Made by a program: the position numbers and the translations under genes | Notes under the pieces: model-generated | Database searches by the model: none | The model's input: the letters and a program-made list of their open reading frames with translations, nothing else | Told to the model about the DNA's origin: nothing | Shown here: one piece after another, positions 100 to 18,385 of the stretch | Layout: each line of letters begins with the position of its first letter | Position numbering within the stretch: the stretch's first letter is position 1 | IMG/VR virus record: IMGVR_UViG_3300045988_040880 | Reading direction: 5' to 3' (one strand) | Source of the DNA: a virus | DNA: 50,103 nucleotides

Positions 100-686
100 T
101 CAAAATCGCTGAAACTCAGAAAGATGTTCAAACCACTTACAAGAACATATTGAGCATGGCTGGTTACCAAGCAATCGTTCCATTGTATTTGCAAGGTGTA
201 CCAAACAACATGGTGAACAAGAAAATCGTTCCGGTCAAGAACAAAGTGATTACGATAAACAAAACAATCTCTGTTAGTGCTTGTGTATCAAGTGAAACAA
301 TGAAAGCCGAGAGTGTTAAGTGCTTCCAAATCATTAAGAAGATTGAGCAATCCGGAATTCGAGTAAACCTGAACTTAATGATTAGCACTGGTCATGTATG
401 TGCTAAAATCCGTCTTAAGTCTGCAGGTGAAAAACTCAACATCAGTAAGTTGGCATTCCCACTGGTTCATCCTTCGATGTTCAGACGTTTGTACTTCAGA
501 TTCATTGAAACTTATCCAACAATTCCGAAGAGCTACAGATTCGGATACGGAAGAGTTCCTAGTGAGAGTGAGTTCAAAGCTGTATGTGGTAAAGGTGAGA
601 TTGTTCTTCCTACACTGCTCAGAGGAAACACTGAAGAAGAAATCAGTCGTTTGAGTGTTGATGAGCTTCTTGAAAAATTGAGTTAA
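1..686 (+). CDS. 3' part of a wrap-around CDS that starts at 49863 (about 275 aa once the circle is closed); hypothetical protein
   Basis: The frame of ORF 150..686 stays open back to base 3. It is in phase with the ATG at 49863 (offset 50004 is a multiple of 3), which has an AGGAGG RBS. No family recognised. Confidence 0.7.
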   Translation, partial: SRDNWYGTSSFNEASDLFKNGWQFGAEELTKKLKIAETQKDVQTTYKNILSMAGYQAIVPLYLQGVPNNMVNKKIVPVKNKVITINKTISVSACVSSETMKAESVKCFQIIKKIEQSGIRVNLNLMISTGHVCAKIRLKSAGEKLNISKLAFPLVHPSMFRRLYFRFIETYPTIPKSYRFGYGRVPSESEFKAVCGKGEIVLPTLLRGNTEEEISRLSVDELLEKLS

Positions 687-693
687 GCTTCTT

Positions 694-720
694 GGGAGGG
701 CAACCTCCCTTGAGGTTTTT
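694..720 (+). terminator. Intrinsic terminator candidate
   Basis: GGGAGG (694-699) pairs with CCTCCC (704-709) around a GCAA loop, followed by ttgaggttttt, directly after the stop at 686. Confidence 0.6.
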
Positions 721-752
721 GAAAAATATTTGAAAAACTTTCGAAAAAAGGG

Positions 753-781
753 TGTACAAATGCAAATTTACGTGGTATAAT
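753..781 (+). promoter_or_regulatory. Promoter P1: TGTACA-N17-TATAAT with TGG extended -10
   Basis: TGTACA at 753-758 and TATAAT at 776-781 with an exact 17-nt spacer. A-tract repeats (ttgaaaaactttcgaaaaaa) lie upstream. Member of an 8-copy family. Confidence 0.8.
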
Positions 782-841
782 AATCTCGTAAGGTACAAAC
801 AAACCTACTTAAAAGTTTTCAGTTGAAAAGGAGATTATATC

Positions 842-1927
842 ATGACAAACGTAAATTTCAAGGTACTCAATATCGAAAAGGCAATGAAAAAGGATTGTGT
901 AGTGGTAACACTTACATTTGATGGTTCTGACAGACAGTTCACTTACGTAAGACGTGCTTACGGTAACACAACCGTGATTGATGGTTGCAGAATTTACTTC
1001 GATACAAACTATCAGGTTGAAAAGGTTGAACGTGAATACGAAACCAAGGGTGTTAAGAAGATGTCCACTGCAAAGCAGGTTGGTACAACCTCAAACAAAA
1101 TCAAAAATGAACTTGAAGGAAAAGGAATTGAGATTCCTAAGATTCAGATTCCTCAGGTTGAAGAGAGTGGTGAAGTTCACCATGACAGATACGAAGAAAT
1201 TAAGTGCTGCCTTGAATGTGGTATTCCGGTATACCTTGCAGGTCCTGCTGGTTCTGGTAAGAATCACACAGTTGAGCAGATTGCAAACGAACTTGGTTGG
1301 AACTTCTACTTCTCCAACAGTGTACAGCAGGAATACAAACTGACTGGCTTCATTGATGCTGGGGGGGAATTCCACGAGACAGAGTTCTATAAAGCTTGTA
1401 CTGATGAGAATGAATGCATCTTCTTCCTGGACGAAATGGATGCTTCCATTCCTGAAGTTCTGGTTCTTCTCAACGCTGCAATTGCTAATGGCTACTTTGA
1501 GTTCCCTAACGGTCGAGTTGATTTTGACCATGTTCACTTCGTAGCTGCTGGTAATACAGTAGGAAATGGTGCAGACGACATGTATACTGGCCGTATGGTG
1601 CTTGACCAGGCAACACTCGATAGATTCGCAATCATTGAGTTTGACTATTGCCTTAAGATTGAAATGGCAATCACCAAGAACAATACCGAACTGGTTGAGT
1701 TTATCCACCAGATGCGTAAGGAAGCTGAGAGCAAAGGAATCAGAGCTACATTCTCTTACAGATGCATGACGATGATTACCAAGCTTGAGCGTAAGGGTAT
1801 GAACTTGGAAATGGCAATGAAGATTAGCATTGTCAAGGGATTGGATAAGGACACAATCAATACCTTCAATCCTTCCGGCAATACCAAGTATCACAATGCA
1901 CTGAGAAAAATCCAGTTGGCCGCTTAA
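842..1927 (+). CDS. AAA+ ATPase (MoxR/CobS-like, AAA_5 type)
   Basis: Walker A 'LAGPAGSGKN', Walker B 'IFFLDEMD', and 'LDRFAIIEF' sensor region. RBS aaaggaga upstream of the ATG. Confidence 0.75.
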   Translation: MTNVNFKVLNIEKAMKKDCVVVTLTFDGSDRQFTYVRRAYGNTTVIDGCRIYFDTNYQVEKVEREYETKGVKKMSTAKQVGTTSNKIKNELEGKGIEIPKIQIPQVEESGEVHHDRYEEIKCCLECGIPVYLAGPAGSGKNHTVEQIANELGWNFYFSNSVQQEYKLTGFIDAGGEFHETEFYKACTDENECIFFLDEMDASIPEVLVLLNAAIANGYFEFPNGRVDFDHVHFVAAGNTVGNGADDMYTGRMVLDQATLDRFAIIEFDYCLKIEMAITKNNTELVEFIHQMRKEAESKGIRATFSYRCMTMITKLERKGMNLEMAMKISIVKGLDKDTINTFNPSGNTKYHNALRKIQLAA

Positions 1928-1956
1928 TGCGGCCTCTGGTCTTTACAGGAGGAACG

Positions 1957-2055
1957 ATGAACAAGGACGGCAAATCATATAGCTTAGGCTACATAATCGG
2001 ATACGTACTCGGTAAGGTGATAAAACCGGTATACGAGTTACTTAGGAGGAAATGA
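1957..2055 (+). CDS. Small hypothetical protein (32 aa)
   Basis: ATG at 1957 preceded by AGGAGG (1945-1950). Fills the gap between flanking genes. Too short for the ORF track. Confidence 0.4.
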   Translation: MNKDGKSYSLGYIIGYVLGKVIKPVYELLRRK

Positions 2056-2057
2056 AA

Positions 2058-2300
2058 ATGGCAAAACGTGGAAAGGTGCTGATAAATGTAAATGACATCA
2101 TCGGCAAGCGCTTAGGAAAGCTTGAAGTCATAAGTTATGCAGGAAACAATTACGACATGACTCTTGGTGGTGAACGAATGAGACACTACTACAGAGTTGA
2201 GTGTGAATGTGGAACAACTAAGTTAGTGCAGAGAGGACAGCTTACGAGTGAGATTGTTCATAGCTGTGGTTGTGGAAGGAGGGGAAGACGTGGCTATTAA
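2058..2300 (+). CDS. Small Cys-rich (zinc-ribbon-like) protein
   Basis: ORF 2052..2300. ATG 2058 has better spacing to AGGAGG (2044-2049). Motifs 'CECG' and 'SCGCG'. Confidence 0.6.
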   Translation: MAKRGKVLINVNDIIGKRLGKLEVISYAGNNYDMTLGGERMRHYYRVECECGTTKLVQRGQLTSEIVHSCGCGRRGRRGY

Positions 2301-2301
2301 G

Positions 2302-2553
2302 ATGCGTAATAACACTAAACCGGAAGCAATCTGCTGTGAATGTGGTGAAGGCCAAAAGGAAGTTCTGAATATGTTTGACTTGTGCATTGGTGGTAACATC
2401 TTCACAATCTGTGATGTGTGTAATGAGAAGATATTCAGTAAGTGCTTGAGTGCAGAGGTCATGAAGAATGGCCGAGTAAAATCTCAGCACGATATGGCAA
2501 TCATTCGTAAGCGTAAAAATAGAATCGGCCTCCGGAACTTTGGAGGTGAGTAA
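2302..2553 (+). CDS. Small Cys-rich (zinc-ribbon-like) protein
   Basis: In-frame ATG at 2302, directly after the upstream stop, with a GGAGGGG RBS. Motifs 'CCECG' and 'CDVC'. The longer 2248 start would overlap the previous gene by 53 nt. Confidence 0.6.
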   Translation: MRNNTKPEAICCECGEGQKEVLNMFDLCIGGNIFTICDVCNEKIFSKCLSAEVMKNGRVKSQHDMAIIRKRKNRIGLRNFGGE

Positions 2554-2943
2554 ATGATAGACTTCAGTAAGTGCCCATGCATATACTGGTCTGATTCAAC
2601 TAAGATTAGTTACCTACAACGACGCATTATCGTTTACTCGATTATGTATTATGAACACGATGAGAGCTGTGTGTCAGATGCTTATTATGACAGCATATCT
2701 CGACAGTTGGTTGCATTGCAAAGAGCATGTGACCCTGCTGAGTTTAGAAAGTCAACTTACTACTATGCAATGTATGACTTCGATGGTTCAACAGGTTTTG
2801 ATATTCCATCACGTCTTACAAAGTACGATAGAGAGTATCTTACAAACATTGCATATCATGTTCATAAGTCGTGGAAGGAGCATACTTCACTAAAAGAGAG
2901 AAAGGAGCAGATAAATGCTGGAGTTAAAGGATTTAGAAAATAG
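2554..2943 (+). CDS. Hypothetical protein
   Basis: ORF abuts the previous stop, with a GGAGGTGAG RBS. No family recognised. Confidence 0.6.
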   Translation: MIDFSKCPCIYWSDSTKISYLQRRIIVYSIMYYEHDESCVSDAYYDSISRQLVALQRACDPAEFRKSTYYYAMYDFDGSTGFDIPSRLTKYDREYLTNIAYHVHKSWKEHTSLKERKEQINAGVKGFRK

Positions 2944-3253
2944 AATTTACAGTGGTAAGCAGTGTGTAGGTTTTGACTACATTCTGAAGGATGAAAAAGG
3001 TAAGCCACAGTTCGAAGCACGATTCAGACCTGGTGCTCAGGACAATGAGTGGTGTATGACCATAGTACTTGATAGAACAAGAGACGCTGATAGTCAGGTG
3101 TACAGCTTCGACTACATCATGCCTAAGTCTGGTTTGCCGATTGGCTTGATTGCAGCTACTGGTCTTAAGTACTTTCAGCTATACCTTAAGGAAGAGATTC
3201 AAACCAAGTCAGGTTATGACTTTGCTCTTGGTGAGATTCTTAGAGGTATGTAG
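2915..3253 (+). CDS. Hypothetical protein
   Basis: ORF with an AAGGAG RBS 6 nt upstream of the ATG. Confidence 0.6.
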   Translation: MLELKDLENRIYSGKQCVGFDYILKDEKGKPQFEARFRPGAQDNEWCMTIVLDRTRDADSQVYSFDYIMPKSGLPIGLIAATGLKYFQLYLKEEIQTKSGYDFALGEILRGM

Positions 3254-3255
3254 GT

Positions 3256-3741
3256 ATGGCAATGAAGAGGTCAGGTAAGTTCTACAGAAAGAATGAAGCT
3301 GAGGTGATGGAATCCCTTGGTCTTAAGCCCACAAAGAACTCAGGTTCCGGTTGGGTTGAAAAGGAAGACGGTCAGTCTGATGATGTTATTTGTCAGCTTA
3401 AGTCAACCGATGCTGAGAGTATCAGAATACATAAAAAGGACTTGGATGTGTTAAGCTACAATGCAGCCGTTGCTCACAAACTACCTGTGTTTGCGATTCA
3501 ATTTCTGCAATCCAATGAGGTTTACTTGTTAGTTAAACCGGATATGCTTTGTGAAGCAGCTCAATACATCGAGACAGGAGAATACACCAGTGCAAATGCA
3601 TTCGTAGGTGTAGATTTAAGTGAGCATGAAGATATGGTCGCAATACCAAAGCGAACAATCAAATCAAGCTCAAAAGCACGTGAACAGTTTCAAAGAGAGA
3701 ATGAACGAAAGTTCAAGAAAGAAAAGAGGTCAGCTACATGA
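3256..3741 (+). CDS. Hypothetical protein, possibly a PD-(D/E)XK-type nuclease or resolvase
   Basis: Pattern 'NSGSGW..KEDG......CQLKST' resembles a D...(E/Q)xK nuclease core. The assignment is weak. Confidence 0.3.
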   Translation: MAMKRSGKFYRKNEAEVMESLGLKPTKNSGSGWVEKEDGQSDDVICQLKSTDAESIRIHKKDLDVLSYNAAVAHKLPVFAIQFLQSNEVYLLVKPDMLCEAAQYIETGEYTSANAFVGVDLSEHEDMVAIPKRTIKSSSKAREQFQRENERKFKKEKRSAT

Positions 3742-4124
3742 TGAACGTAAAAGTTAAAGAGGTCGTGAAGTATGGTGGCCACAGCTTATCGGCAAATGGT
3801 TCGGTAAACTTCACACTTAAAGCTCAGTATTCTGAGTTGCCTAACACAATCAAGCTTATGCAGATGCTCAACAATGATGTGAACATCAAAGCGAAGGTTC
3901 CTGGTGGTAAGCCTATGAAGTTGGGCTTCTTCAGGGTAAAGCAGATTGTCATTGATGGTGATGGTGAATCTACTATCAAGTTCAACGGTCTGAATGACTA
4001 CATTGAAATGGACAATCTGAACCTGCTTCCTCTGAACACAGATGAGAACAAGGAATTTGTGGTTCTTATGGAGGCCGATATTGAAACAGATGAAATGGAG
4101 GAAACAGACGATGGCGAAGAGTAA
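3738..4124 (+). CDS. Hypothetical protein with acidic C-terminus
   Basis: ORF overlaps the upstream stop (ATGA). C-terminal 'EMEETDDGEE'. Confidence 0.6.
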   Translation: MMNVKVKEVVKYGGHSLSANGSVNFTLKAQYSELPNTIKLMQMLNNDVNIKAKVPGGKPMKLGFFRVKQIVIDGDGESTIKFNGLNDYIEMDNLNLLPLNTDENKEFVVLMEADIETDEMEETDDGEE

Positions 4125-4380
4125 AATCGAATACCGTGAGCTTTCCAGAGCTAAGGTAACCGATTCCCGTAATATTGTGGTGTCCAGTTGTTCCAAGGGT
4201 GGATTCACTATTGCCCAGCAGCTTGAGGCCAAGGAAAACGACAAGACCACTTCGGTCTTTATGAAGGGTGCATTCCATGTGGAAGATATTCATGGACTTT
4301 ACAACCTTCGTGATGCAGTAAATCTTGCGATTAAAATTTCGGAAGAAAATTCTGCAGATAATGAAGCTTGGGATGAGTAA
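4111..4380 (+). CDS. Hypothetical protein
   Basis: In-frame ATG 4111 with a GGAGGA RBS (4096-4101). Ends in 'NEAWDE'. Confidence 0.55.
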   Translation: MAKSKIEYRELSRAKVTDSRNIVVSSCSKGGFTIAQQLEAKENDKTTSVFMKGAFHVEDIHGLYNLRDAVNLAIKISEENSADNEAWDE

Positions 4381-4438
4381 AATAGGAAATAACTTGAAAA
4401 TATTTTGCAAAAAAGTTCAAAAAGTTTTCAAAAACCTA

Positions 4439-4467
4439 TGTACAAATCAAAAGTTTCGTGGTATAAT
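4439..4467 (+). promoter_or_regulatory. Promoter P2: TGTACA-N17-TATAAT
   Basis: TGTACA at 4439-4444 and TGGTATAAT ending at 4467, with a 17-nt spacer. Upstream A-tract repeats ttcaaaaagttttcaaaaa. Confidence 0.8.
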
Positions 4468-4579
4468 ATATTCAAGAGGTGGTTAAGGAATCCTCAGTCT
4501 AAACCGCATTCGGAAGATAAGTCCTGAGTTCAGGAAAAATCATCAATCAAAAATCAAAATCAGAAAAGGAGAAATCAAA

Positions 4580-5350
4580 ATGGCAAAGAATTATACTTTC
4601 AATGAGGCAGTTGCGATTATCGCAGCAGGTAAGGACATGGAGGCAATCACTGACATCGGTCGTCGTTATCCTGTTCTTGCACATAAGATTGCAGTAGTTG
4701 CTGCAAAGGCTGGTGAGGAGTTTGTTGACCTTATGGGTTACATGCCTGATTACCTCACTGCAAATAAGGTGAACACCGCTATCAAGGCTGGTATCACTGA
4801 ATCCGGTTCCGACGAGGACGACACTGAAGACGAGGCTACTGAAGCTGCAACTGAGGATGCAACTGATGGTGGTGCTGAGTGGAATGAGAGCATGAGTGCT
4901 AAGCAGCTCTGGGACATCCTTGGTAAGGCTGGTAAGCGTAAGCTCGCTAAGTCTACTAAGAAGGCTGACCTCATCGAAGCTTGTAAGCAGGCTTTCGGTG
5001 GTGCATCTGAGGATGCAGAGGATGAGGCTGAGGACGAAGCTACTGAGTCTGAAAACGCTTACGAAGGCAAGTCCGCTATGGAGCTCTTTAAGGAGTGCAA
5101 GGCTCGTAAGATTAAGGCTGCTCCTAAGAAGCCTGCTAAGTACTACATTGACCTCCTGGTTAAGGATGATGCTGCAAAGGCTGAAGCTACTGAAGCTGAG
5201 TCCGATGACGAGGACTGGGGTGACGAAGAGGCTGAGGCTCCTAAGAAGGAAGAGAAGAAGGCTGCTAAGCCTGCTGCAAAGGGTGGCAAGGCAAAGGCTG
5301 CTAAGAAGGCCGAAGCTGAATCTGAGGATGATGACGACTGGGACATTTAA
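4580..5350 (+). CDS. Highly acidic protein with two HeH/SAP-like motifs
   Basis: D/E-rich tracts; 'MSAKQLWDILGKAGKRKLAKSTKKADLIEACKQAF' and 'AMELFKECKARKIKAAPKKPAKYYIDLL'. Strong RBS AAAGGAGA. Confidence 0.6.
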   Translation: MAKNYTFNEAVAIIAAGKDMEAITDIGRRYPVLAHKIAVVAAKAGEEFVDLMGYMPDYLTANKVNTAIKAGITESGSDEDDTEDEATEAATEDATDGGAEWNESMSAKQLWDILGKAGKRKLAKSTKKADLIEACKQAFGGASEDAEDEAEDEATESENAYEGKSAMELFKECKARKIKAAPKKPAKYYIDLLVKDDAAKAEATEAESDDEDWGDEEAEAPKKEEKKAAKPAAKGGKAKAAKKAEAESEDDDDWDI

Positions 5351-5391
5351 TGTTCAGTCAATATATGAATCCGCCTCAATAGGTAGACATA

Positions 5392-5430
5392 GGCTGGGCA
5401 TGTGTTTATGAGGCATGTGTCCAGCCTTTA
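5392..5430 (+). terminator. Intrinsic terminator candidate
   Basis: GGCTGGGCATGTG...CATGTGTCCAGCC forms a stem (with G-U pairs) followed by TTTA. Confidence 0.5.
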
Positions 5431-5449
5431 CTCAATTTAGGAGGTACAA

Positions 5450-5890
5450 ATGAAAACAGAACAGATTCTTAACCTTGACTATAGAAAAGAAGAAAGTCAA
5501 GAGATAATTCAGAAGGTGTTGACGAAAATCAAACCACTTTCTAAATACTCAGATGAGTTTGTTCCTTTGGAAGCTATTGAAAAGCTTATTCGTGTGTTGT
5601 GTCAAAAGTATGAGATTACACCACAGTGGATGACCATGTCCTATCATGAACCTATTCTTGGTATTTACTCCATTGGTGTTAAGACAACCACGGACCACAA
5701 ATGGCTTGGCACTGTATATGGTATGTGTTTGTACGAAGTATTTGCTAAGCTCGCAATTAAGATGTATTCTGAAGTCAAGTCTGGCAACATTCCCATTAAG
5801 ACAATGACTAAAGAAGAAAAGCAGCGTGAGCGTATTGCTCGAAAGGTTGACGCTGAAAAGGAACAGGATGACGAAGACGATTGGAACTAA
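5450..5890 (+). CDS. Hypothetical protein
   Basis: ORF with an AGGAGG RBS. Ends in 'DDEDDWN'. Confidence 0.6.
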   Translation: MKTEQILNLDYRKEESQEIIQKVLTKIKPLSKYSDEFVPLEAIEKLIRVLCQKYEITPQWMTMSYHEPILGIYSIGVKTTTDHKWLGTVYGMCLYEVFAKLAIKMYSEVKSGNIPIKTMTKEEKQRERIARKVDAEKEQDDEDDWN

Positions 5891-5902
5891 GGAGGAAGGC
5901 CG

Positions 5903-6385
5903 GTGAAAGTAAGAATTTTTACTGACGGTGCTTGCTCAGAAAATCCGGGCCCTGGCGGTTGGGCTGCAGTATTCAATACAGCTGATAAGTGCAAGACGAT
6001 TAGTGGTAACGAGAAAATGACCACAAATAATCGTATGGAGCTTAGAGCTGTTATTGAGGCATATACGAAGGTGCTGAGTAAGAAACCTAAGACTGACGTT
6101 GAATATGAGTTGTACTCAGACAGCGCATACGTTGTTAACTCTATCAACAATGGCTGGATAGATAAGTGGCAGCAAAACAATTGGAAGACAACTAAAAATG
6201 ATGACGTCAAGAATAGAGACTTGTGGGAACAACTTGCGTTCTTACGTAACAAAGCAAGGTCACTTGGTGTTTACATAAAAATCATCAAGATTAAGGGACA
6301 TGCTGGTAACACCTTCAATGAGCTGGTTGATAAGCTGGCTAAAGAGGAATCACTCAAAGCAAAGGAAGGTGTTAACTATGATTAA
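5903..6385 (+). CDS. rnhA: Ribonuclease HI
   Basis: 'IFTDGACSENPGPGGWAAV', 'TNNRMELRAVIEA', 'SDSAYVVN', 'GHAGNTFNELVDKLA'. GTG start with an AAGGAGGA RBS. Confidence 0.85.
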   Translation: MKVRIFTDGACSENPGPGGWAAVFNTADKCKTISGNEKMTTNNRMELRAVIEAYTKVLSKKPKTDVEYELYSDSAYVVNSINNGWIDKWQQNNWKTTKNDDVKNRDLWEQLAFLRNKARSLGVYIKIIKIKGHAGNTFNELVDKLAKEESLKAKEGVNYD

Positions 6386-6761
6386 GTACTCAAGAGAGTT
6401 CTACAAAAAATCATTCACAGCCGATACTATGAAATCGGCGTACCTATCGGCTGTGAAGTGGTATTCGACGAATGTACTGAGTAAGGCTGAATTCATAAAC
6501 GTTCATGTGCAGTTTGTAAAGGACGACAAAGCTGAATTTCCAACTATTACCATGCATTTGTTCGCTGTTCAAGATGGAGAGCAGGATGTAATGACTCAGC
6601 ATTGCGCATGTTGTAAAGAGATGCATCACAGCTTCTTCATAAATGAGGACACACATTGCAGTAGATGCAGTGCTTTAGGTTTTCAAAACAGGCTTGAGCA
6701 AAAGATAAATATAAAGAAAGACTACTATAAAGAGATGCTTAGAAAGCGATTGGAGGAATAA
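6378..6761 (+). CDS. Hypothetical Cys-rich protein
   Basis: In-frame ATG 6378 with an AAGGAAGG RBS. 'CACC...HCSRC'. Confidence 0.5.
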   Translation: MIKYSREFYKKSFTADTMKSAYLSAVKWYSTNVLSKAEFINVHVQFVKDDKAEFPTITMHLFAVQDGEQDVMTQHCACCKEMHHSFFINEDTHCSRCSALGFQNRLEQKINIKKDYYKEMLRKRLEE

Positions 6762-6764
6762 CAA

Positions 6765-7160
6765 ATGAAGAGATTCATCAGAATTACGCTCGAAATCATT
6801 CTTGATATTGTACGAGCTGTTGCATATTTCATCACACATAACCTGAGAAACTTCGCATGGCTGCTCAATTTGATTCTGCCTTATGTGATGTACTTCATCG
6901 GTCAGAAAGCTTGTGCTGACAAAGGTCAGGTTGCAGTTGGTTCTGAATTGTTCATTCCTATTGTTGTATGTGTGATTATTTACTACCTTCGTTCTTATGC
7001 TAATAAGATTGGCAAAGGTCACACCATTCCGGTACCTGATAAGAGATTCACTCAGGTTGATGACTATGGTGAGGTGTCCATTGAAAACAATCGTGTGCAG
7101 GAATTGATTCTGTATCTTGCCGACCTTGAGGATTGGCTTGAACGAAAAGGCCTACTATAA
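6765..7160 (+). CDS. Membrane protein
   Basis: Two or three hydrophobic segments in the N-terminal 80 aa. Confidence 0.55.
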   Translation: MKRFIRITLEIILDIVRAVAYFITHNLRNFAWLLNLILPYVMYFIGQKACADKGQVAVGSELFIPIVVCVIIYYLRSYANKIGKGHTIPVPDKRFTQVDDYGEVSIENNRVQELILYLADLEDWLERKGLL

Positions 7161-7162
7161 AA

Positions 7163-7266
7163 GCAGATTTATCCAGATTGTCCCAGATTTAATTTTTAGG
7201 AATAAAGGTAAGGAAATATATATCTTATAAATAAAAATCAATCTGGGGTCAATCTGGAACTTCTGT
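7163..7266. repeat. Composite element A: 3x CCAGA (10-bp phase), AT-rich core, 3x TCTGG inverted
   Basis: (G/C)CAGA at 7163, 7173, 7183. TCTGG/TCTGT at 7242, 7253, 7262. Core contains tatatatcttataaat. Confidence 0.8.
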
Positions 7267-7296
7267 GAATAACAAAAGATTGGAGGCAATATACTA

Positions 7297-7827
7297 ATGG
7301 CAGCATGGGAATATTTTACCAGCCAAAAACAGTGGGAGGCATATCTTAAAGACCTCTTAAAAACAAACGACCAAGCGTTGCTCAAATCTATTGTATTGGT
7401 GTATGATAATCAGACTGATGAGGAAAAGAACAAGGGCGAAAGCATTGAAGATAACTGCATCGGATTCAGTAAGATTGATGCCAAGGAAATGGGTGACATT
7501 GCGAAAAAGATAAAAGCCGGTAAGGCGCTTACAAAAGGTGAACTTGCTAAATCACGCAATAAAATGCAGAAGTATTGGAAGCAGTTGATGATTATCAGCA
7601 AGAAGCAGGCAGAGGCCAAGAAGTTGCAGGAGCAAAAGGAACTTGAAGATAAGCTGGCTGAAGAGGTAGCCGCTATCGAAGAGGAAGATAAGTTAAAGCT
7701 TGAGCAGTTTAGGGAACATAATGAAATACTTAGACGTTGCTCTGAAGAGGGTATAGCTTGTAGTTATGGCATTTGCGATGAATGTCCCATCACTACTGGT
7801 TTTCAAATGAGAATGAACCTCGATTGA
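7297..7827 (+). CDS. Hypothetical coiled-coil protein with C-terminal Cys cluster
   Basis: ORF with a GGAGG RBS. K/E-rich helical region and 'CSYGICDEC'. Confidence 0.55.
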   Translation: MAAWEYFTSQKQWEAYLKDLLKTNDQALLKSIVLVYDNQTDEEKNKGESIEDNCIGFSKIDAKEMGDIAKKIKAGKALTKGELAKSRNKMQKYWKQLMIISKKQAEAKKLQEQKELEDKLAEEVAAIEEEDKLKLEQFREHNEILRRCSEEGIACSYGICDECPITTGFQMRMNLD

Positions 7828-7856
7828 GAGTGTTAAGAATAACGGAGGAAAGAAAG

Positions 7857-8519
7857 ATGAGAAGAACACAAATTGAAAAGCAAAGACGTATTCGTCAAAG
7901 GAATCTGGAGAGGGCAACATGCCAGAATCTTATCTATCACGTCATCATTTGTCTATTCATTATGATGGTTGCTTTGTGTGGTGCAGTTGGTAAGTGTATG
8001 GAAAATCCTGAGGATATTGTTGAATCTCAGCATGAGACCACGAGACCTCAGCCTGTTCCTACAATTCAAGTAGATACTCAAGAGGATGAAGTTAAAGCTG
8101 AGGCAGTCATTCCTATGTGTCCTAAGTTTACATATTCAAAAGACTGGGGCTATGAGGATAGCTACCTGCTGGCAAAGATTGCTATGGCAGAAGCTGAAGG
8201 CTGCAACATTCAGACTAAGACTTTGGTCATTATGACCGTGCTAAATCGTGTATGGTCTGATGAGTTTCCTGATACGATTGAAGATGTTATCTTTCAAGAG
8301 TACAATGGAGTTTATCAGTTCACACCCATTGCAAATGGACGATGGAATAGGGTGGAGCCTAATGATGATTGTTGGGAAGCTGTACAGGTAGTTATGGAAG
8401 CAGTCTATGATTATTCTGGTGGTGCACTCTACTTCGAGTCATGTGCTAATGAAGATAATTGGCATAGCAGGAATCTTGAGTTTCTATACGAATCAGATGG
8501 ATTGAGGTTTTATAAGTAA
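7857..8519 (+). CDS. Membrane-anchored SleB-family cell wall hydrolase
   Basis: ATG 7857 with a GGAGGA RBS. N-terminal hydrophobic segment 'LIYHVIICLFIMMVALCGAV'. 'AKIAMAEAEGC...VIMTVLNRV...VYQFTPIANGRW'. Confidence 0.7.
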   Translation: MRRTQIEKQRRIRQRNLERATCQNLIYHVIICLFIMMVALCGAVGKCMENPEDIVESQHETTRPQPVPTIQVDTQEDEVKAEAVIPMCPKFTYSKDWGYEDSYLLAKIAMAEAEGCNIQTKTLVIMTVLNRVWSDEFPDTIEDVIFQEYNGVYQFTPIANGRWNRVEPNDDCWEAVQVVMEAVYDYSGGALYFESCANEDNWHSRNLEFLYESDGLRFYK

Positions 8520-8788
8520 TGGCTAAATACAATACGTTTGTGGTGTGTGACTGCAGGAGGCGTAAAAACCTCCTCGTCACTTCTTCTGCAAGAAAAGCAA
8601 AAGGTGAGCTATGTACCGGTATAAAGGTTGAGGTATGGAATGAGAACACTCATATTGAGACTGTATACTCAAGAAAAGCCAAAGACCTTGATAAGTATAT
8701 CACTTTGGAAAAGCAATACATAGCTAAAAAGCAAGCAAATGCCCAAAGAAGAAATGAACAAAGAAGGAGAAAGAATCATGGCTTATGA
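8519..8788 (+). CDS. Hypothetical basic protein
   Basis: ORF coupled to the upstream stop (TAATG). Confidence 0.5.
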   Translation: MAKYNTFVVCDCRRRKNLLVTSSARKAKGELCTGIKVEVWNENTHIETVYSRKAKDLDKYITLEKQYIAKKQANAQRRNEQRRRKNHGL

Positions 8789-9332
8789 TATGAAAATTGA
8801 GATTCTTAGACATCCTGAAAAGGAAGACTGGGAACGTTGCAAAATGCTGGCACTTAACACTGTCGGTAAGAAGTATGCCGGAACAGAGATAACGGATAAT
8901 TGGAAGCATCAGATTCTGAAAGCTGAGCATTCGCCTATCAGGACTTTGATGTTTACTATTCGACTGACTATCCCATATTTTGTGTCAGTTCATCTGGTTC
9001 GTCATAAGATTGGTATTGAGCATTATGTTCAGTCCCAGCGTAACGATAGGCAGACAAACTATGACAGAGAGCTTGCACCTCAGAATGCTATGGTCAGCCA
9101 TATTATTGAAGTAAATGCAGAACAGCTTATGTTCATGGCAAGACGCAGACTGTGTGGTCAGGCTGATGCTACTACACGATTTGTGATGACTCATATCTGC
9201 ATTGAGGTATGTAAGACGAATCCTGAGTTTAAGGACTTCCTTAAGCCTATGTGTGAGTATAGAGGTGGTTGCCCTGAATTTAAGCCTTGCGGATATTGGG
9301 AGGCAAATCATCATGATGTACAAACAGATTGA
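8778..9332 (+). CDS. ThyX-like (flavin-dependent thymidylate synthase family) protein, short and divergent
   Basis: ATG 8778 with an AAGGAGA RBS. 'EHSPIRTLMFTIRL' and 'HLVRHKIGIEHYVQSQR' resemble the ThyX RHR...SxR signature. Confidence 0.5.
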   Translation: MAYDMKIEILRHPEKEDWERCKMLALNTVGKKYAGTEITDNWKHQILKAEHSPIRTLMFTIRLTIPYFVSVHLVRHKIGIEHYVQSQRNDRQTNYDRELAPQNAMVSHIIEVNAEQLMFMARRRLCGQADATTRFVMTHICIEVCKTNPEFKDFLKPMCEYRGGCPEFKPCGYWEANHHDVQTD

Positions 9333-9561
9333 GTGTCCTACATGTGGTAATGTAACGACAGCTAAGTCAATTCACGAACCTCAGAAATGCCAGTGGTGTA
9401 GAAGGTTGTTCAAGGTAACAATCACCAAAAGGAATACCAATGGTAAGAAAAGCAAGTTCAGTTGGTCTGCTGAGCCTGTTGATTTTGAGGAAGACAATCA
9501 ACCAAGACCAAGAATCCGAAGCCTGTCTGATTACAGGAATGAGGATATTTACGGTAAGTAA
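9313..9561 (+). CDS. Zinc-ribbon protein
   Basis: ATG 9313 with a GGGAGG RBS. 'CPTCGN...CQWC'. Confidence 0.55.
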   Translation: MMYKQIECPTCGNVTTAKSIHEPQKCQWCRRLFKVTITKRNTNGKKSKFSWSAEPVDFEEDNQPRPRIRSLSDYRNEDIYGK

Positions 9562-9571
9562 TTAAATAATC

Positions 9572-9672
9572 CCAGGATTAACCAGATTGACTCCAGATTG
9601 ATTCTTTGGTAATTACAATATAAATCATATAAATCAAAATGGATAAATCCAGGGACATCCTGGGACTTCTGA
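9572..9672. repeat. Composite element B: phased CCAGA array, AT-rich core, inverted array
   Basis: CCAGG/CCAGA at 9572, 9582, 9593. Core has tataaatcatataaatc. TCCAGG/CCTGG/TCTGA at 9648, 9659, 9668. Confidence 0.8.
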
Positions 9673-9748
9673 AGATAATTCCTTATGCCATCAGTTTGAT
9701 ACTGTCAAAAATAATTTGCAAAAACTTCAAAAACTTTTAAGAAAAGGG

Positions 9749-9777
9749 TGTACAAACCCAAAAGTTTGTGGTATAAT
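9749..9777 (+). promoter_or_regulatory. Promoter P3: TGTACA-N17-TATAAT
   Basis: TGTACA at 9749-9754 and TGGTATAAT ending at 9777. A-tract repeats upstream. Confidence 0.8.
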
Positions 9778-9847
9778 ATAATCAAGGTTAAGGAATGAAC
9801 CTAACCGCAAACTAAAAATCAAATTAAAAGTTCAGGAGGACAAAGTG

Positions 9848-10339
9848 ATGAAGAAAATCAATGAAATGAGTGTTAAGGAATTACGTGAGGTTGCTAAGGA
9901 AATGAATATTGCTGGTCGTTGGGATATGACTAAGGCACAACTCACTGAGGCAATCGAGAAAATTGAGAATGAGAGAAAGGCTGCAAAGCAGGTTAAGAAG
10001 GAAGCCAAAGAATCCAAGAAGGAAAAGGCAATGCGTATTCAGAGAGCATTCGTTGAGGTTGGTGAAACTCGTAAGGAAGCTTACAGATACATCACCATCA
10101 CAGTTAAGAATGTTGAGGAATCCAAAGCTGCTGAGTACATTGATTCTGTATGTGCTAAGATGCAGGAAATGGATGAAGAGTTTGGTGCTGAATATACTGC
10201 ATTGAGATGTCCTGATATTGATGAGGCAACTAAGTCTTATACAGACATGATTAGCTTCACAAAAGCTGCAGGTAAGATTGCAGTTCAGAGACAGTATGTT
10301 GGCAAACTGATGACCAAAGCTATGGCGGCATTAAAATAA
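9848..10339 (+). CDS. Protein with N-terminal Rho_N/HeH-like domain
   Basis: 'MSVKELREVAKEMNIAGRWDMTKAQLTEAI', a paralogous N-terminus to CDS 35310. AGGAGGA RBS. Confidence 0.55.
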   Translation: MKKINEMSVKELREVAKEMNIAGRWDMTKAQLTEAIEKIENERKAAKQVKKEAKESKKEKAMRIQRAFVEVGETRKEAYRYITITVKNVEESKAAEYIDSVCAKMQEMDEEFGAEYTALRCPDIDEATKSYTDMISFTKAAGKIAVQRQYVGKLMTKAMAALK

Positions 10340-10377
10340 GGTAAAGCGTAAGCAAACCAAATTGTTATAGAGGAACG

Positions 10378-10413
10378 AGCTTGGATGAGATACTCCAGGC
10401 TTTGTTCTATTTT
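10378..10413 (+). terminator. Intrinsic terminator candidate
   Basis: 8-bp stem between 10378-10385 and 10394-10401 (one G-U pair), followed by ttgttctatttt. Confidence 0.55.
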
Positions 10414-10436
10414 GGAGGAAAGGAGAACACAATCAA

Positions 10437-11156
10437 ATGGCGTCAGAAAAGAAAACTAAAAATGAGTGCATCGCCACTGAGTGGTTGGAAGAAGACAATC
10501 TGATGCTGATTGAGTGCTGGGCAAGAGACGGATATACTTTCCAGGATATTGCAAACAGAATCGGCATTGCGGTATCTACTCTTCGTGGTTGGAGAGCTCA
10601 ATATCCAGAGTTTGATGAGGCCCTTAAGAGAGGCCGAGAGATAATTGACTATAAAGTAGAAAATGCATTGCTTAAGTCTGCTTTAGGGTATAAAACAAAA
10701 GAGGTAAAGGTCACTACTACAATGCGTTATGGTAAGGTAGTTGAAACAGTTAAAGAGGTGACCGATAGAGAACAAGCACCTAACGTATCAGCTATTCAGT
10801 GTTGGTTGTATAACAGACTTCCTAATAAATGGAAGAAGAATAGAGACAACCTCATTGAGCTTGATGAAGAAGACACAAAGATTCAGGTGACAGTAACGAG
10901 AGCAAGTCAGTCGACTAAGCCAAATGCTCAGCATGATGATACAGTAGATGAAGAGTGGCAAGATGAAGTAAATCAGTCGATTGAAATTAGAAGTATGACA
11001 GAGGAAGAGCAAGCTGAAGCTGCCAAGAAAAAGGCTAAAGCTAAGAGTGAGAGCTCTCAAAAGCTATCGACTAAAGTGGAGTCTGAAGCAAACGATGAGG
11101 ACCTGGATTATTGGCCTGATGATTGGGAAGACGAAGATGAAGAATGGGAGGACTAA
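10437..11156 (+). CDS. terS: Terminase small subunit
   Basis: N-terminal HTH-like 'YTFQDIANRIGIAVSTLRGWRAQYPEFDEALKRGRE'. Located directly upstream of terL. Confidence 0.75.
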   Translation: MASEKKTKNECIATEWLEEDNLMLIECWARDGYTFQDIANRIGIAVSTLRGWRAQYPEFDEALKRGREIIDYKVENALLKSALGYKTKEVKVTTTMRYGKVVETVKEVTDREQAPNVSAIQCWLYNRLPNKWKKNRDNLIELDEEDTKIQVTVTRASQSTKPNAQHDDTVDEEWQDEVNQSIEIRSMTEEEQAEAAKKKAKAKSESSQKLSTKVESEANDEDLDYWPDDWEDEDEEWED

Positions 11157-11159
11157 GCT

Positions 11160-12524
11160 ATGAAGATTACAAAAGCAGTCAGCCCGGCATTCGAGGACTT
11201 TCTATTTGATTGGGACTATGAGAGATACTTACTAATTGGTGGGTATGGTTCAGGTAAGTCGTATCACATTGCATTCAAGATAATCATAAAGCTCTTAGAG
11301 GAGAAGAGAAAAGCATTGGTCATTAGAGAGGTGTTTGACACTATTCAGGAATCTTGCTATGACTTGATTGCAGAGATACTTGATGATATGGGTTTATTGA
11401 CTACTGACCCTAAAGAGTTCAAGCAAAGGCAAAACAAAGTCTTGGCACTTAAGAGCCCACTAAGGTTCAGGTTTAAGAATGGCAGTCAGATAATCTTTAA
11501 GGGAATGGACAAGCCTGAAAAGGTAAAGTCTATCAATGGTGTTTCTATTGTCTGGTTGGAAGAGTGTTCTGAGATTAAGTATGAAGGTTACAAAGAGTTG
11601 CTTGGTCGTATTCGTACACCAAACGTAAGTATGCACTTCATCTTAAGCTGCAACCCTATCGGAAGAGACAATTGGGTGTATAGACATTTCTTTGTAAGAC
11701 TGGATGATGAAGGCCAAGAACATGTAATGGTCGATGAGAAGAAGTTCTATGAGAAGAGATGCATAATCCATAATGGTACATACTTCCACCATAGTACACC
11801 GGATGACAATCCTTGGTTGCCTTGGCAATATCTTAAGAGACTTGACCAGCTCAAGGACTATGACTATCCTTTGTATATGGTTGCTCGTTGGGGAAGATTT
11901 GGTGCTACTGGTACGAGAGTGCTGCCTCAGTTCTTGGTGGCTCATGATAAGGGCAAGTTCAAAGCAGCTATTGCTAAGCTTGGTCCTGAGAATCAGTACT
12001 TTGGATTTGACTTTGGTTTTGAGGAATCTTTCAATGCTGTTGTGTGTATGAGTGTAGACTTGAAAAACTCCGTGCTTTATGTATGGGATGAAATCTACAT
12101 GAACCATGTGACAGATGATGTGTTTGCTAATCAGCCAGAGATGCAAGCTCTAAGGAGACGATTGAATGACCTGAATAATGCAGGTTATGCTAAAACGATT
12201 GTGGCAGATAATGAGGACCCGAAAGCAATCACTTACTACAGACAGAATGGATTTAGGATTCGTGGTTGTAGGAATAAGTTTGCAGGTTCGAGATTGTCTA
12301 ATACTCGTAAGGTAAAACGATTCAGAAAGATTGTGGTCAGCCCTAAATGCAAGAACGTTATTCGTGAGCTTAAGGACTTGACTTACAAAAAAGATGCAAA
12401 AGGTAATGTGATTTATGACCAGTTCAATATTGACCCTCACAGCTTCTCAGCTATTTGGTATGCACTTGATACTGTGACAGTTGCTGATGTTAAGCAGAAG
12501 GACTTCAATAGTAAGGCTGGTTGA
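11160..12524 (+). CDS. terL: Terminase large subunit
   Basis: Walker A 'GGYGSGKSY', 'VWLEECSE' Walker B, and a C-terminal nuclease-like region. Typical size and position. Confidence 0.85.
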   Translation: MKITKAVSPAFEDFLFDWDYERYLLIGGYGSGKSYHIAFKIIIKLLEEKRKALVIREVFDTIQESCYDLIAEILDDMGLLTTDPKEFKQRQNKVLALKSPLRFRFKNGSQIIFKGMDKPEKVKSINGVSIVWLEECSEIKYEGYKELLGRIRTPNVSMHFILSCNPIGRDNWVYRHFFVRLDDEGQEHVMVDEKKFYEKRCIIHNGTYFHHSTPDDNPWLPWQYLKRLDQLKDYDYPLYMVARWGRFGATGTRVLPQFLVAHDKGKFKAAIAKLGPENQYFGFDFGFEESFNAVVCMSVDLKNSVLYVWDEIYMNHVTDDVFANQPEMQALRRRLNDLNNAGYAKTIVADNEDPKAITYYRQNGFRIRGCRNKFAGSRLSNTRKVKRFRKIVVSPKCKNVIRELKDLTYKKDAKGNVIYDQFNIDPHSFSAIWYALDTVTVADVKQKDFNSKAG

Positions 12525-12535
12525 TGGAGGTGCTT

Positions 12536-12856
12536 ATGACAGTTCGAAGGAGACGAGAACGAAAGAGCATCTTCAAGAGAGTAAAGGAATGGATTGGCAA
12601 AATAGGTACATTGAATATCGTGCTTATTTGTGTCGGATTGTTCTTTGTCTGGTTTAACTACCAGATGTTGGAGATGTTCAAGCTTTGTGGTGCTATTCCT
12701 GAGACTTATGCATGTGCAGTCATTGCAGCTACTATTGGTGAGTGTGGAATCTGTGGATGGATAAGGACGAACAAGGATAAGAAAACACAAAGGGAATGGG
12801 ATAAAGAGGACCAAAAGGAAAGGGAATCAAATAACGAGGAAGGAGGAAAAGGATAA
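12536..12856 (+). CDS. Small membrane protein (start uncertain, 12524 or 12536)
   Basis: Two hydrophobic segments and a charged C-terminus. GGAGG at 12526-12530. Confidence 0.5.
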   Translation: MTVRRRRERKSIFKRVKEWIGKIGTLNIVLICVGLFFVWFNYQMLEMFKLCGAIPETYACAVIAATIGECGICGWIRTNKDKKTQREWDKEDQKERESNNEEGGKG

Positions 12857-13167
12857 TGACTATCGAGATTTTTCTGATGATGCTGCTTGCATGTTCTATT
12901 CTGACTACGCTCACTGTGGAAGCAATCAAGAAGATGTTTACCAATGGTGAGGCAAGAAAGGCGAACATTGTGGCTGCTGTGGTAGCTATCGTTCTGGCAG
13001 TTGCTATTGCCATTATTTATGCTATCATGTTTACTGTGACTGTGAATGCTCAGTACATCGTGATGATTATTGCTCTATGTTTCTTGTCTTGGCTGTGTGC
13101 TATGGTTGGCTATGACAAGATTGTTCAGGCGATTGCCCAGATTACAGGTAAGAACAAGGAGGGCTAA
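12856..13167 (+). CDS. Holin-like membrane protein
   Basis: 103 aa with three hydrophobic segments, immediately upstream of the endolysin. Confidence 0.6.
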   Translation: MTIEIFLMMLLACSILTTLTVEAIKKMFTNGEARKANIVAAVVAIVLAVAIAIIYAIMFTVTVNAQYIVMIIALCFLSWLCAMVGYDKIVQAIAQITGKNKEG

Positions 13168-13170
13168 GTC

Positions 13171-14727: not shown

Positions 14728-14741
14728 GGAGGTAATGGAAG

Positions 14742-16343: not shown

Positions 16344-16360
16344 GAAAGGAGGATGCCATA

Positions 16361-18357: not shown

Positions 18358-18385
18358 GTATCATGGAACAAGGAGGAAAATCAAA

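Follow-up and report, generated by a model that had tools for sequence, protein, structure and literature searches.

Palindromic intergenic elements with helically phased pentamers in a group of uncultured gut phages

Four intergenic elements and their genomic setting

The segment at 7163-7266 is an intergenic imperfect palindrome, and it is one of exactly four mutually similar elements (A to D, Table 1) that nhmmer detects in the window, which is the whole stretch of 50,103 nucleotides analysed here. The preliminary description had proposed four copies with one architecture and all of them were recovered. Profile HMMs built from the orthologues of each copy detect the other three with better-strand E-values of 1e-10 to 2e-4, and they reveal no fifth copy in the window. 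The pattern CCAGA-N5-CCAGA with at most one mismatch occurs eight times against 3.2 expected, and seven of these occurrences lie inside the elements. The four elements are a real family and not chance matches.

All genes and promoters in the window are on the + strand, and the nine promoters are near-identical, of host type, and follow one strict consensus. Each element lies in an intergenic gap directly after a stop codon, as described before; the stop codons end 2-10 nt ahead of the element or, in the case of C, overlap it. A heads a block with a cell-wall hydrolase, B the terminase/portal block, C the head-tail-lysis block and D a block with a RuvC-like resolvase. The distance from the last pentamer to the TGTACA -35 hexamer of the downstream late-operon promoter, earlier estimated at about 80 bp, is 76 bp for B and 77 bp for C, and it is 74-77 bp in most B- and C-type copies, divergent ones included. 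A and D are followed within about 15-25 nt by a ribosome-binding site and ATG, and no consensus promoter is found there, which agrees with the earlier observation that these genes have no TGTACA promoter. Besides the promoters, the elements are the only conserved non-coding signal found in the window.

No obvious regulator was seen in the window. Searches with Pfam and PHROGs found no gene there for a phage sigma factor or RNA polymerase, for an integrase, repressor, partition protein or transposase, or for a replicative helicase or recognisable initiator. The recombination genes encoded are RecA-like, UvsY-like and SSB-like together with two junction resolvases (3256-3741 and 48796-49479), and the replication genes comprise a primase and a DnaE-like polymerase. 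Canonical terminators stand ahead of the promoters at 753 and 34391, and a terminator scan of 1-20000 listed none at A, B or C. There is no T-run on the 3' side of any of the four elements, and without a U-tract they are not intrinsic terminators.

Table 1. Positions of the four elements and of the promoters that follow B and C in the window
Feature	Coordinates	Strand	Description
Element A	7163-7266	.	Imperfect palindrome between ORF 6765-7160 and ORF 7297-7827
A left arm	7163-7187	+	GCAGA 7163 (degenerate), CCAGA 7173, CCAGA 7183; 10-bp spacing
A core	7188-7241	.	54 bp, 85% A+T; TATAAAT at 7227
A right arm	7242-7266	-	TCTGG 7242, TCTGG 7253, TCTGT 7262 (degenerate); spacing 11 + 9
Element B	9572-9672	.	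After ORF ending at 9561; left-arm pentamers start at 9572 (CCAGG), 9582, 9593, right-arm pentamers at 9649 (CCAGG), 9659 (CCTGG), 9668 (TCTGA)
Consensus promoter	9749-9777	+	TGTACA-N17-TGnTATAAT, downstream of B; phased A-tract upstream region; heads terminase/portal block
Element C	17279-17380	.	Overlaps stop codon of MuF-like head-morphogenesis gene 16361-17287; left-arm pentamers start at 17279, 17289 (TCAGA), 17299, right-arm pentamers at 17357, 17368, 17376
Consensus promoter	17458-17486	+	Downstream of C; heads head-tail-lysis block
Element D	48664-48765	.	Between ORF 48429-48653 and RuvC-like resolvase gene 48796-49479; left-arm pentamers start at 48664, 48674, 48684, right-arm pentamers at 48741 (CCTGG), 48752, 48761 (CCTGG)

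Each arm of the four window elements is built up by two or three CCAGR pentamers at 9-11 bp spacing, and the arms are inverted around a core of 51-54 bp with 81-85% A+T, compared with 59% for the window. The whole element of about 105 bp forms an imperfect palindrome that is foldable on either strand, which bears out the dyad symmetry proposed earlier. The proposal of three half-sites per arm stands as regards the phased inverted arms, but several of the half-sites are degenerate. The repeat unit exceeds the pentamer and is approximately CCAGAWTGAY, with CCAGATTGATT as the inner unit. TTTAATT at the start of the A core and AAATCAA at its finish are extensions of the inner units.

In 36 non-redundant members of the family, adjacent pentamers are spaced by 8 bp in two pairs, 9 bp in 13, 10 bp in 37, 11 bp in 24 and 12 bp in one, so that 61 of 77 pairs have the 10-11 bp spacing. 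The half-site phasing first described in the window is thus conserved in related phages. The elements carry at least three conserved short units at helical spacing, as expected of iteron or operator arrays. Arms of representative elements may bear unequal numbers of pentamers, and pentamers have been flipped in place yet retained (B in relatives, L009 and L016 types). The inner right pentamer of B in the window has the wrong orientation for its arm, and eight exact pentamers point the wrong way across the 36 representatives. Avoidance of restriction or Dcm sites was ruled out, CCWGG not being depleted.

Distribution and conservation in related phages

The same elements are found at the same four intergenic sites in dozens of related phage contigs of about 50 kb from gut metagenomes, and about 30 distinct relatives have an orthologue of A at the same site. 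A 22-base composite pattern matched only this clade in IMG/VR, apart from one G+C-rich, chance-like match; in a loose three-pentamer scan of IMG/VR chance matches predominate. Apart from chance G+C-rich matches, GTDB gave only phage-like contigs, of about 3 to 50 kb, that had been placed in Clostridia MAGs; this binning points to Oscillospiraceae and other Clostridia as hosts. Neither the elements nor analogous palindromes with another motif were found in the three nearest phages that are cultured or deposited (Agathobaculum phage AB434P2, Clostridium phage CS266P3 and Dulem virus 36). AB434P2 carries one unrelated 65-bp palindrome.

A 6-kb query matched none of 50,697 phage records in megablast, and the phage collection searched holds no cultured representative of the clade. 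Rfam gave no match at gathering score for the whole window, and at E<=5 the region 7100-9800 gave only a microRNA model (E=2.8), far below its threshold. These results from Rfam and the nearest phage records agree with the earlier remark that no known family with this arrangement was recognised. The element family is conserved in and confined to one group of uncultured gut phages, and it has apparently not been described before.

The pentamers are kept in both arms and in the four paralogues, and also in relatives with 60-70% amino-acid identity in the neighbouring proteins; a relative at about 32% identity has a more degenerate copy. The cores diverge across relatives while the pentamers stay conserved. 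The elements are under constraint, for their rate of divergence is about that of the coding DNA on their flanks. Each genome has 3-5 copies, whose positions at orthologous sites are stable throughout the clade. Five relatives (L016, L017, L024, L030 and L038) have an element at the portal/head-morphogenesis junction, which is empty in the window, and three (L004, L005 and L067) have none at site C; no target-site duplication or clean empty-site footprint was seen at either place.

Presence and absence of copies, and differing intergenic sites between lineages, would be expected if the elements were palindromic recombination linkers or selfish repeats of the PeSL, REP or MITE kind. They would then be substrates of the phage recombination system, maybe extruded as cruciforms, and mark the points where modules are swapped. 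Mosaic junctions do coincide with B (about 50% identity upstream and 85-88% downstream in L195 and L202), with C (53% upstream, 95% in the element and 89% downstream in L010) and with D (L212). The recombination genes in the window, an inverted paralogue, and an arm co-variation that is strand-neutral, as expected of cruciforms or arm-to-arm conversion, also fit this reading. However, what looks like a junction upstream of C in L010 stems from a domain inserted in frame in the upstream gene and not from an exchange at the element. The small and stable set of copies, conserved as much as coding DNA and without insertion footprints, argues against mobility, as do the failure to find a transposase and the lack of copies beyond the clade. 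Homologous recombination, moreover, has no need of helically phased pentamers, and a role as recombination linker or selfish repeat is considered unlikely.

PeSLs in T4-type phages combine a stem-loop, an AT-rich region, a strong sigma-70-like promoter and an SD in one intergenic cassette (PMC2839356). They are intergenic motifs of about 100 bp at indel and replacement junctions, with about 50 per genome in hyperplastic regions, short G-rich/C-rich stems and a promoter always included, and their authors speculate that the conserved stem may bind protein (PMC2839356, PMC4122927). B and C, with an A-tract region and a consensus promoter downstream, have the layout of such a cassette, which favours the linker reading, whereas A and D have no promoter. 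Unlike PeSLs, the elements have only four copies, two of them promoterless, and long arms of phased pentamers. Their positions are stable instead of clustered at hyperplastic or indel regions, although some mosaic junctions coincide with them.

REP/BIME, ERIC and Correia elements are present on chromosomes in tens to hundreds of copies, and transposases mobilise them, with target duplications. The phage elements resemble these imperfect palindromes, which are intergenic, about 100-150 bp long and conserved in the arms but variable in the A+T-rich interior; in both cases the repeats are co-transcribed and are found in either orientation. They also share with MITEs the terminal inverted repeats, the lack of coding capacity and a small A+T-rich body. 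Unlike REPs and MITEs, they are few, positionally stable and confined to a phage clade, with no duplication seen. The many copies, including those in host chromosomes, and the transposase that characterise MITEs were not found in GTDB, IMG/VR and the window.

The core and the symmetry of the arms

The preliminary description mainly took the core for a regulated promoter, middle or late, with activator or repressor sites on both sides. The genes after A and D have no consensus promoter, most cores contain TATAAAT or TATAAT, and TTGATT in the inner unit resembles a -35 hexamer. TATAAAT is present in 18 of 32 independent cores at offsets of -12 to +19 from the core centre, and the inverted motif ATTTATA in nine of the 32. 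The box reported earlier is thus frequent, but it has no fixed position over a range of about 30 bp. Read as a hexamer, TATAAAT breaks either A2 or T6 of the TATAAT consensus.

A sigma-70 scan of the + strand found no promoter with -35 and -10 hexamers 16-18 bp apart in the cores of A, B and C, and with this result and the variable offsets TATAAAT was ruled out as a positioned -10 element. In one relative (L208) the core of D matches A-type cores in inverted orientation only (score 30.5 inverted and 11.5 direct), so that a promoter in this core would face away from the genes. The nine promoters of the window are of another type and extremely uniform, and no phage sigma factor or RNA polymerase was found there. 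The description of the core as promoter-like was not supported, and a flanked, regulated promoter is highly improbable.

The hairpin reading, which like the recombination reading was absent from the preliminary description, sees the elements as co-transcribed interrupted stems. These would be cut by host RNase III, or act as attenuators or 3' stabilisers, and split long polycistronic transcripts into blocks that differ in stability. Every copy lies in a transcribed spacer right after a stop codon; A and D interrupt operons without any other signal, and B and C are at places where a terminator would be expected, such as those at the 753 and 34391 promoters. All four elements fold better than shuffles (MFE -30 to -37 kcal/mol, z -2.5 to -6.3), with the duplex of at least about 20 bp expected of a transcribed RNase III hairpin. 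The core as a structured RNA was ruled out, its mean z being only -0.78.

The two arms of an element also co-vary. In this comparison 70.7% of the cells are paired compared with 65.0% in shuffles, the covariation score is 0.264 compared with 0.186, and none of 500 shuffles reached the observed paired fraction or covariation score. The inner pair is altered on both arms in L035 and L038, and L288 has CCAGG/CCTGG. Mixed copies aligned with MAFFT yielded no consensus in RNAalifold, their arms being out of register, and the column-pair structure was instead voted from single-sequence folds. A test of arm complementarity anchored on exact pentamers gave 11.9 within and 11.1 between elements, with several arms mis-extracted, and it was rerun with anchor-free centring. 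The spacers between pentamers co-vary between both arms of one element as well. This counts against independent binding sites, from which it would not be expected unless arm-to-arm gene conversion is assumed in addition, or a hairpin or cruciform form.

No sign of RNA-strand selection was found, either as a preference for G·U over A·C or as an advantage of sense-strand folding. The + strand folds better in 32 of 60 cases and energies are equal between the strands. The predicted paired positions contain G·T in 59 cells and A·C in 60, although the pairing was taken from + strand folds; among isolated mismatches the numbers are 16 and 13, respectively. About one fifth of the arm positions are mismatched, which also argues against a selected RNA stem; A·A and T·T (U·U in RNA) are the commonest, and inspection of the arms places most of them at the degenerate W of the repeat unit. 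The symmetry belongs to the DNA and not to the + strand RNA, and the elements are orientation-independent.

Several sequence-related intergenic hairpins with internal loops are known as RNase III sites in T7 (R sites) and SP82 (early-mRNA sites). Like these, the elements lie directly after stop codons in long host-polymerase transcripts of a lytic phage. Unlike these, they are about twice as long and lack the mark of selection on the RNA strand, and the pentamer periodicity and flips are not explained by sites of this type. Selection for structure only does not account for the strict pentamer sequence, an inverted copy exists, and no Rfam family matches. The probability that the elements serve as RNA hairpins is judged to be low.

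Inverted arrays of initiator units that flank an unwinding element, as in archaeal ORB/DUE or the SV40 pentanucleotide core, would make the elements origin-like sites, either several origins or entry points for recombination-dependent replication. The elements have the layout of such origins, with inverted or direct sites beside an A+T-rich region. The arrays converge on a spacer of about 52 bp whose A+T content exceeds 80%, which is consistent with this, as are the strand-neutral symmetry and the phage's own primase, DnaE-like polymerase and T4-like recombination set; T4 uses several origins. However, the four copies are dispersed, none of them adjoins a gene recognisable as that of an initiator or a helicase, close relatives differ by gain and loss of copies, and no replicative helicase gene was found in the window. 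An origin function is very unlikely.

Proposed binding arrays for a putative clade-specific protein

Phased arrays bound by small oligomerising proteins are known from ParR/parC of plasmid R1, the omega heptads of pSM19035 and the Xis/Cox/Apl micro-filaments. The elements are like these in having at least three short units, one per helical turn, along one DNA face. As at parC, where arrays may flank an A+T-rich or promoter region, the arms enclose an A+T-rich core, and as in the omega heptads the orientation of a unit may flip within an array. Unlike these systems, the elements have inverted arrays on the two sides of a spacer, about 52 bp long and without recognisable promoter, and their arms co-vary. 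They are also dispersed, with four copies in a phage where neither an integrase nor a partition gene was seen and no cognate RHH or winged-helix gene was found.

Stoperators in Cluster A mycobacteriophages are asymmetric 13-bp sites for the lysogeny repressor, with 20-30 per genome in one orientation. The elements are similar to stoperators and to SAS/ESAS as repeated phage-specific motifs in short intergenic spaces by the stop and start codons of co-directional genes. They differ from stoperators in being symmetric and about 105 bp long with four copies, in a window where no repressor or integrase was found.

Judged by their sequence, the elements behave like strand-symmetric DNA sites for a putative protein rather than like promoters or RNA structures. 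The preferred reading, which is held tentatively, is that they are dyad-symmetric binding arrays for a putative clade-specific protein and mark the heads of four gene blocks. Up to three units of about 10 bp (CCAGAWTGAY) follow one another in each arm at intervals of one helical turn, and the two arrays so formed face each other over the A+T-rich spacer. An oligomeric protein may bind the pentamers cooperatively along one face of each arm, so that a symmetric nucleoprotein complex forms over an easily bent or melted centre.

By their place after the stop codons at the heads of the four blocks, such complexes would act as orientation-independent punctuation. They could be a roadblock or an insulator, or alternatively an architectural switch that controls read-through and the use of the two downstream promoters. 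We infer both protein binding and a transcriptional role, the latter purely so. Against the binding-array reading, only two of the four copies are near promoters, and these are upstream by too great a distance to act by simple occlusion. Cooperative binding of an oligomeric protein, suggested already in the preliminary description, is the best reading of the strand-neutral symmetry and of the flipped but retained pentamers, although no cognate protein was found.

The search for such a protein with Pfam and PHROGs gave no HTH or RHH candidate among about 70 ORFs. Filtering by co-occurrence led to the ORFs 7297-7827, 8519-8788, 49488-49697 and 2052-2300. AlphaFold models of 7297-7827 (pLDDT 78) and 8519-8788 (pLDDT 90) had no fold match in the PDB, and no recognisable fold was seen in the clade-specific small ORFs adjoining the elements (176, 89 and 69 amino acids). 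The ORFs that co-occur with the elements are missing from L222 and L223, whose clade still bears variant elements. Two proteins with an N-terminal Rho_N domain have only that motif in common.

It is also conceivable, but quite improbable, that a small protein reads the six phased pentamers and drives the A+T-rich centre into an open or cruciform state. The elements would then be a multi-copy entry point that couples recombination-dependent replication, with the RecA-like and UvsY-like proteins and the two junction resolvases, to the expression of the late blocks. If so, a site of this kind would be a DNA-structure switch and not a promoter, a terminator or a classical operator.

Identifying what binds or cuts the elements would make temporal control accessible in a phage group that is uncultured, and the few known families of intergenic repeats in phages would gain a distinct type. 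If the elements are merely RNase III sites or recombination scars, they are of local interest only. The element family is easily recognised and therefore useful as a clade marker. The clade is common in human-gut metagenomes, and the assembly collection indexes one of its proteins in 300 blocks.

Structure, placement and distribution of the elements

All four composite elements of the preliminary description are present in the window (see table). Their inverted arms carry, as proposed, three pentamers each of the CCAGR type with a spacing of 8-11 bp, some of them degenerate, around cores of 51-54 bp with an A+T content of 81-85%. The repeat unit of about 10 bp is CCAGAWTGAY; the inner unit extends to CCAGATTGATT and corresponds to AAATCAATCTGG in the opposite arm, these flanks are the most enriched k-mers of the cores, and the whole element is an imperfect palindrome. 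The triple CCAGA runs are more striking because CCAG is rare on the C-poor + strand (89 occurrences versus 195 of CTGG; C 16.6% versus G 24.5%). For each copy, a profile HMM of its orthologues detects the other three copies on both strands, with E-values of 1e-10 to 2e-4 on the better strand, and no fifth element in the window.

The placement described earlier was also confirmed. The elements start 2-10 nt past a stop codon, which C overlaps. B and C end 76-77 bp upstream of the -35 hexamers of late-gene promoters, and A and D lie directly ahead of genes lacking a TGTACA promoter, with RBS and ATG within about 15-25 nt and no consensus promoter before the next gene block.

Comparison loci were regions around homologues of three neighbouring proteins, fetched from IMG/VR and JGI metagenomes. 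Dozens of relatives carry elements at all four orthologous sites. L288, a locus whose neighbouring protein is only 65% identical, carries an element at each of sites A, B and D and a degenerate copy at C, and the more distant L030, L015, L016, L035 and L064/L065 have variant copies. In some relatives another intergenic site holds a fifth element (L198, about 4342-4457; L208, about 13163-13278). A 22-base composite pattern searched in all of IMG/VR matched this phage clade and one G+C-rich, chance-like sequence. In GTDB, with one genome per species, it matched phage-like contigs of about 3 to 50 kb binned in Oscillospiraceae, Clostridia and Eubacteriales MAGs; the remaining matches were evident chance, in G+C-rich coding DNA. 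None of the three nearest phage records (AB434P2, CS266P3 and Dulem virus 36) contains an element. Sequence divergence of the elements is similar to that of flanking coding DNA (about 80% versus about 80% identity; 91-99% versus 94-99%), so they are under constraint. The family is conserved, clade-restricted and real, and apparently undescribed. AB434P2 has a single 65-bp intergenic palindrome (9238-9302) with CTGAATGAA-like repeats and one CCAGAAAT, which is not a family member by nhmmer.

Pairing between arms and the nature of the core

Signals for pairing and for protein sites are both present in the elements. In an alignment of 21 diverse copies, 36 column pairs derived from + strand RNA folds were compared with 500 shuffles of partners among sequences. 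Standard pairs made up 70.7% of cells (shuffled 65.0 ± 1.0%), 70 cells were changed on both sides (44.8 ± 5.3) and the covariation score was 0.264 (0.186). None of the 500 shuffles reached any of these values, and slid controls gave at most 0.145. Complementarity to a given left arm is also higher for the right arm of the same element than for arms of other elements (mean rank 12.3 of 36, expected 18.5). Coordinated changes occur in L035/L038, where the inner pentamer is altered in both arms, and in L288, where CCAGG in one arm pairs with CCTGG in the other.

Such pairing might point to + strand RNA as the selected species. However, G·T and A·C are similarly frequent: 59 and 60 cells at the 36 column pairs despite their + strand derivation, 16 and 13 isolated mismatches within helices (36 non-redundant copies), and 176 and 167 among all arm mismatches, with 581 of other kinds. 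The better fold is on the + strand in only 32 of 60 copies. The sequence itself also seems to matter, since the pentamer is retained where pairing is lost, where the arms carry unequal site numbers, and where it has been inverted at its site. Inversions of this kind affect the inner left pentamer of B in relatives, the middle left pentamer of the L009 type, and L016, and among 36 representative elements eight exact pentamers have the wrong orientation. As we read the arm sequences, the W positions of the repeat unit frequently oppose each other as A·A or T·T. In L208, the D copy has a core that matches A-type cores when inverted (score 30.5; 11.5 in direct orientation), so copies or their cores can lie either way to transcription. 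Pairing, strand, sequence and orientation together argue that it is dyad-symmetric double-stranded DNA that is under constraint, and the covariation between arms is most simply explained by conversion between inverted arms or a cruciform form.

The core had been proposed to be promoter-like, and this was not borne out. A sigma-70 scan of window 1-20000 recovers the four consensus promoters in that range and no + strand promoter in the cores; its only matches at elements are a weak site in the right arm of B and a minus-strand site in C. Of 32 independent cores, 18 contain TATAAAT, at offsets ranging between -12 and +19, and nine contain its complement ATTTATA. A positioned promoter was rejected on the scan, these scattered motifs and the inverted L208 paralogue. 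Cores alone, moreover, hardly exceed shuffles in structure (mean z -0.78). The core thus has the appearance of an A+T-rich spacer carrying a loose compositional motif.

Genomic setting and possible role

The window of about 50 kb is essentially a complete phage genome with all plausible genes on the + strand. A search of 50,697 phage records gave no near DNA match. The isolates nearest to it are phages of gut Clostridia, with 58% amino-acid identity to the polymerase of Agathobaculum phage AB434P2 and 63% identity to the capsid of Clostridium phage CS266P, and human-gut assemblies commonly contain near-identical contigs of about 50 kb. Nine + strand promoters have the strict form TGTACA-N17-TGnTATAAT, where none is expected by chance. 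Their -35 hexamer is unusual in being palindromic, and they are preceded by phased A-tracts, most with two or three TTCAAAAA-like tracts. TGTACA promoters were not found in AB434P2, CS266P3 or Dulem virus 36. The promoter at 39362 falls within ORF 39004-39555.

Principal features of the window
Feature	Position	Content or remark
Element A	7163-7266	Heads block with unknown 176-aa protein and Hydrolase_2 cell-wall hydrolase
Element B	9572-9672	Heads terminase/portal block, via promoter at 9749
Element C	17279-17380	Heads head-tail-DGR-lysis block, via promoter at 17458
Element D	48664-48765	Heads block with RuvC-like resolvase
Consensus promoter starts (+ strand)	753, 4439, 9749, 17458, 34391, 34748, 39362, 44355, 49785	
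Structural/packaging genes		Small and large terminase, SPP1-type portal, MuF-like head-morphogenesis protein, scaffold, major capsid, tail genes
Replication/recombination genes		DnaE-like polymerase, DnaG-type primase and the recombination kit
T4-style recombination kit	3256-3741, 37278-38147, 44554-45851, 47564-49479	RecA-like, UvsY-like mediator, SSB-like, Cas4-like exonuclease, two different junction resolvases
Nucleotide-metabolism genes	38077-41664, 46316-47577	ThyX-like, dCMP deaminase, nucleoside 2-deoxyribosyltransferase, HD 5'-deoxynucleotidase, MazG/dUTPase-like, thymidylate-kinase-like, SAM methyltransferase, OGG_N-like
Diversity-generating retroelement (DGR)	30392-33395	
DGR reverse transcriptase	32232-33395	PHROG 1423, E 1.7e-67
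DGR variable repeat	31230-31312	83 nt, 3' end of ORF 30392-31327, among tail genes
DGR template repeat	31983-32065	81% identical to variable repeat, differences at template adenines
MuF-like protein	16361-17287	308 aa
62-nt direct repeats	33645-33706, 33848-33909	73% identical, each starting ATG

Canonical terminators are found only ahead of the promoters at 753 and 34391, and transcription from upstream early/middle promoters must therefore enter each element. The distance from element to -35 hexamer is kept at 74-77 bp in most B- and C-type copies, divergent ones included, which in part reflects common descent of the whole element and promoter module. The best interpretation of the elements is that they are dyad-symmetric DNA sites composed of phased units, with a putative function. 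The favoured reading is that a symmetric nucleoprotein complex at the elements would punctuate the one-way transcription map, possibly as a roadblock, insulator or architectural switch.

Pfam and PHROGs searches of about 70 ORFs revealed no DNA-binding domain. Filtering for window ORFs absent from element-free phages and present in distant element-bearing ones leaves 7297-7827, 8519-8788 (product very basic), 49488-49697 (product Cys-rich with a basic tail) and 2052-2300. Homology searches with the first two recovered nothing but metagenome-derived sequences, many of them on contigs of about 50 kb; the AlphaFold models of both are confident (pLDDT 78 and 90), with no solved-fold match. These candidates for the binder are lacking in L222 and L223, in whose clade variant elements nonetheless persist. 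The gene at 9848-10339, which comes first downstream of element B and its promoter, and that at 35310-35825, in the early region, encode proteins whose only common feature is an N-terminal Rho_N (helix-extension-helix) motif (46% identity over about 58 residues).

The elements resemble the promoter-early stem-loop (PeSL) cassettes of T4-type phages in having mosaic junctions and in being present or absent. Unrelated DNA upstream and homologous DNA downstream is seen at B in L195 and L202, at C in L010 and L033, and at D in L212, although the apparent junction in L010 is a domain insertion in the upstream gene. Elements occur at other intergenic junctions in other lineages, and in L004, L005 and L067 the element is missing while the promoter remains. 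Unlike PeSL-type recombination cassettes, they are low in copy number and stable in position. No target duplication was seen at the elements. The T4-style recombination kit lies in a siphovirus-like genome of about 50 kb, and no replicative helicase was recognised in the window.

Other features of the genome

The phage DNA may carry a modified base, to judge from the dense group of nucleotide-metabolism genes; a deoxyuridylate hydroxymethyltransferase appears in the annotation of the Agathobaculum relative. The MuF-like protein has long, differing C-terminal extensions in many relatives (L009-L012, L016-L034), and that of L227 (19056-20531) is 661 aa long with an ADP-ribosylating exotoxin domain. 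The two 62-nt repeats resemble the beginnings of two small paralogous genes beside a holin-like gene.
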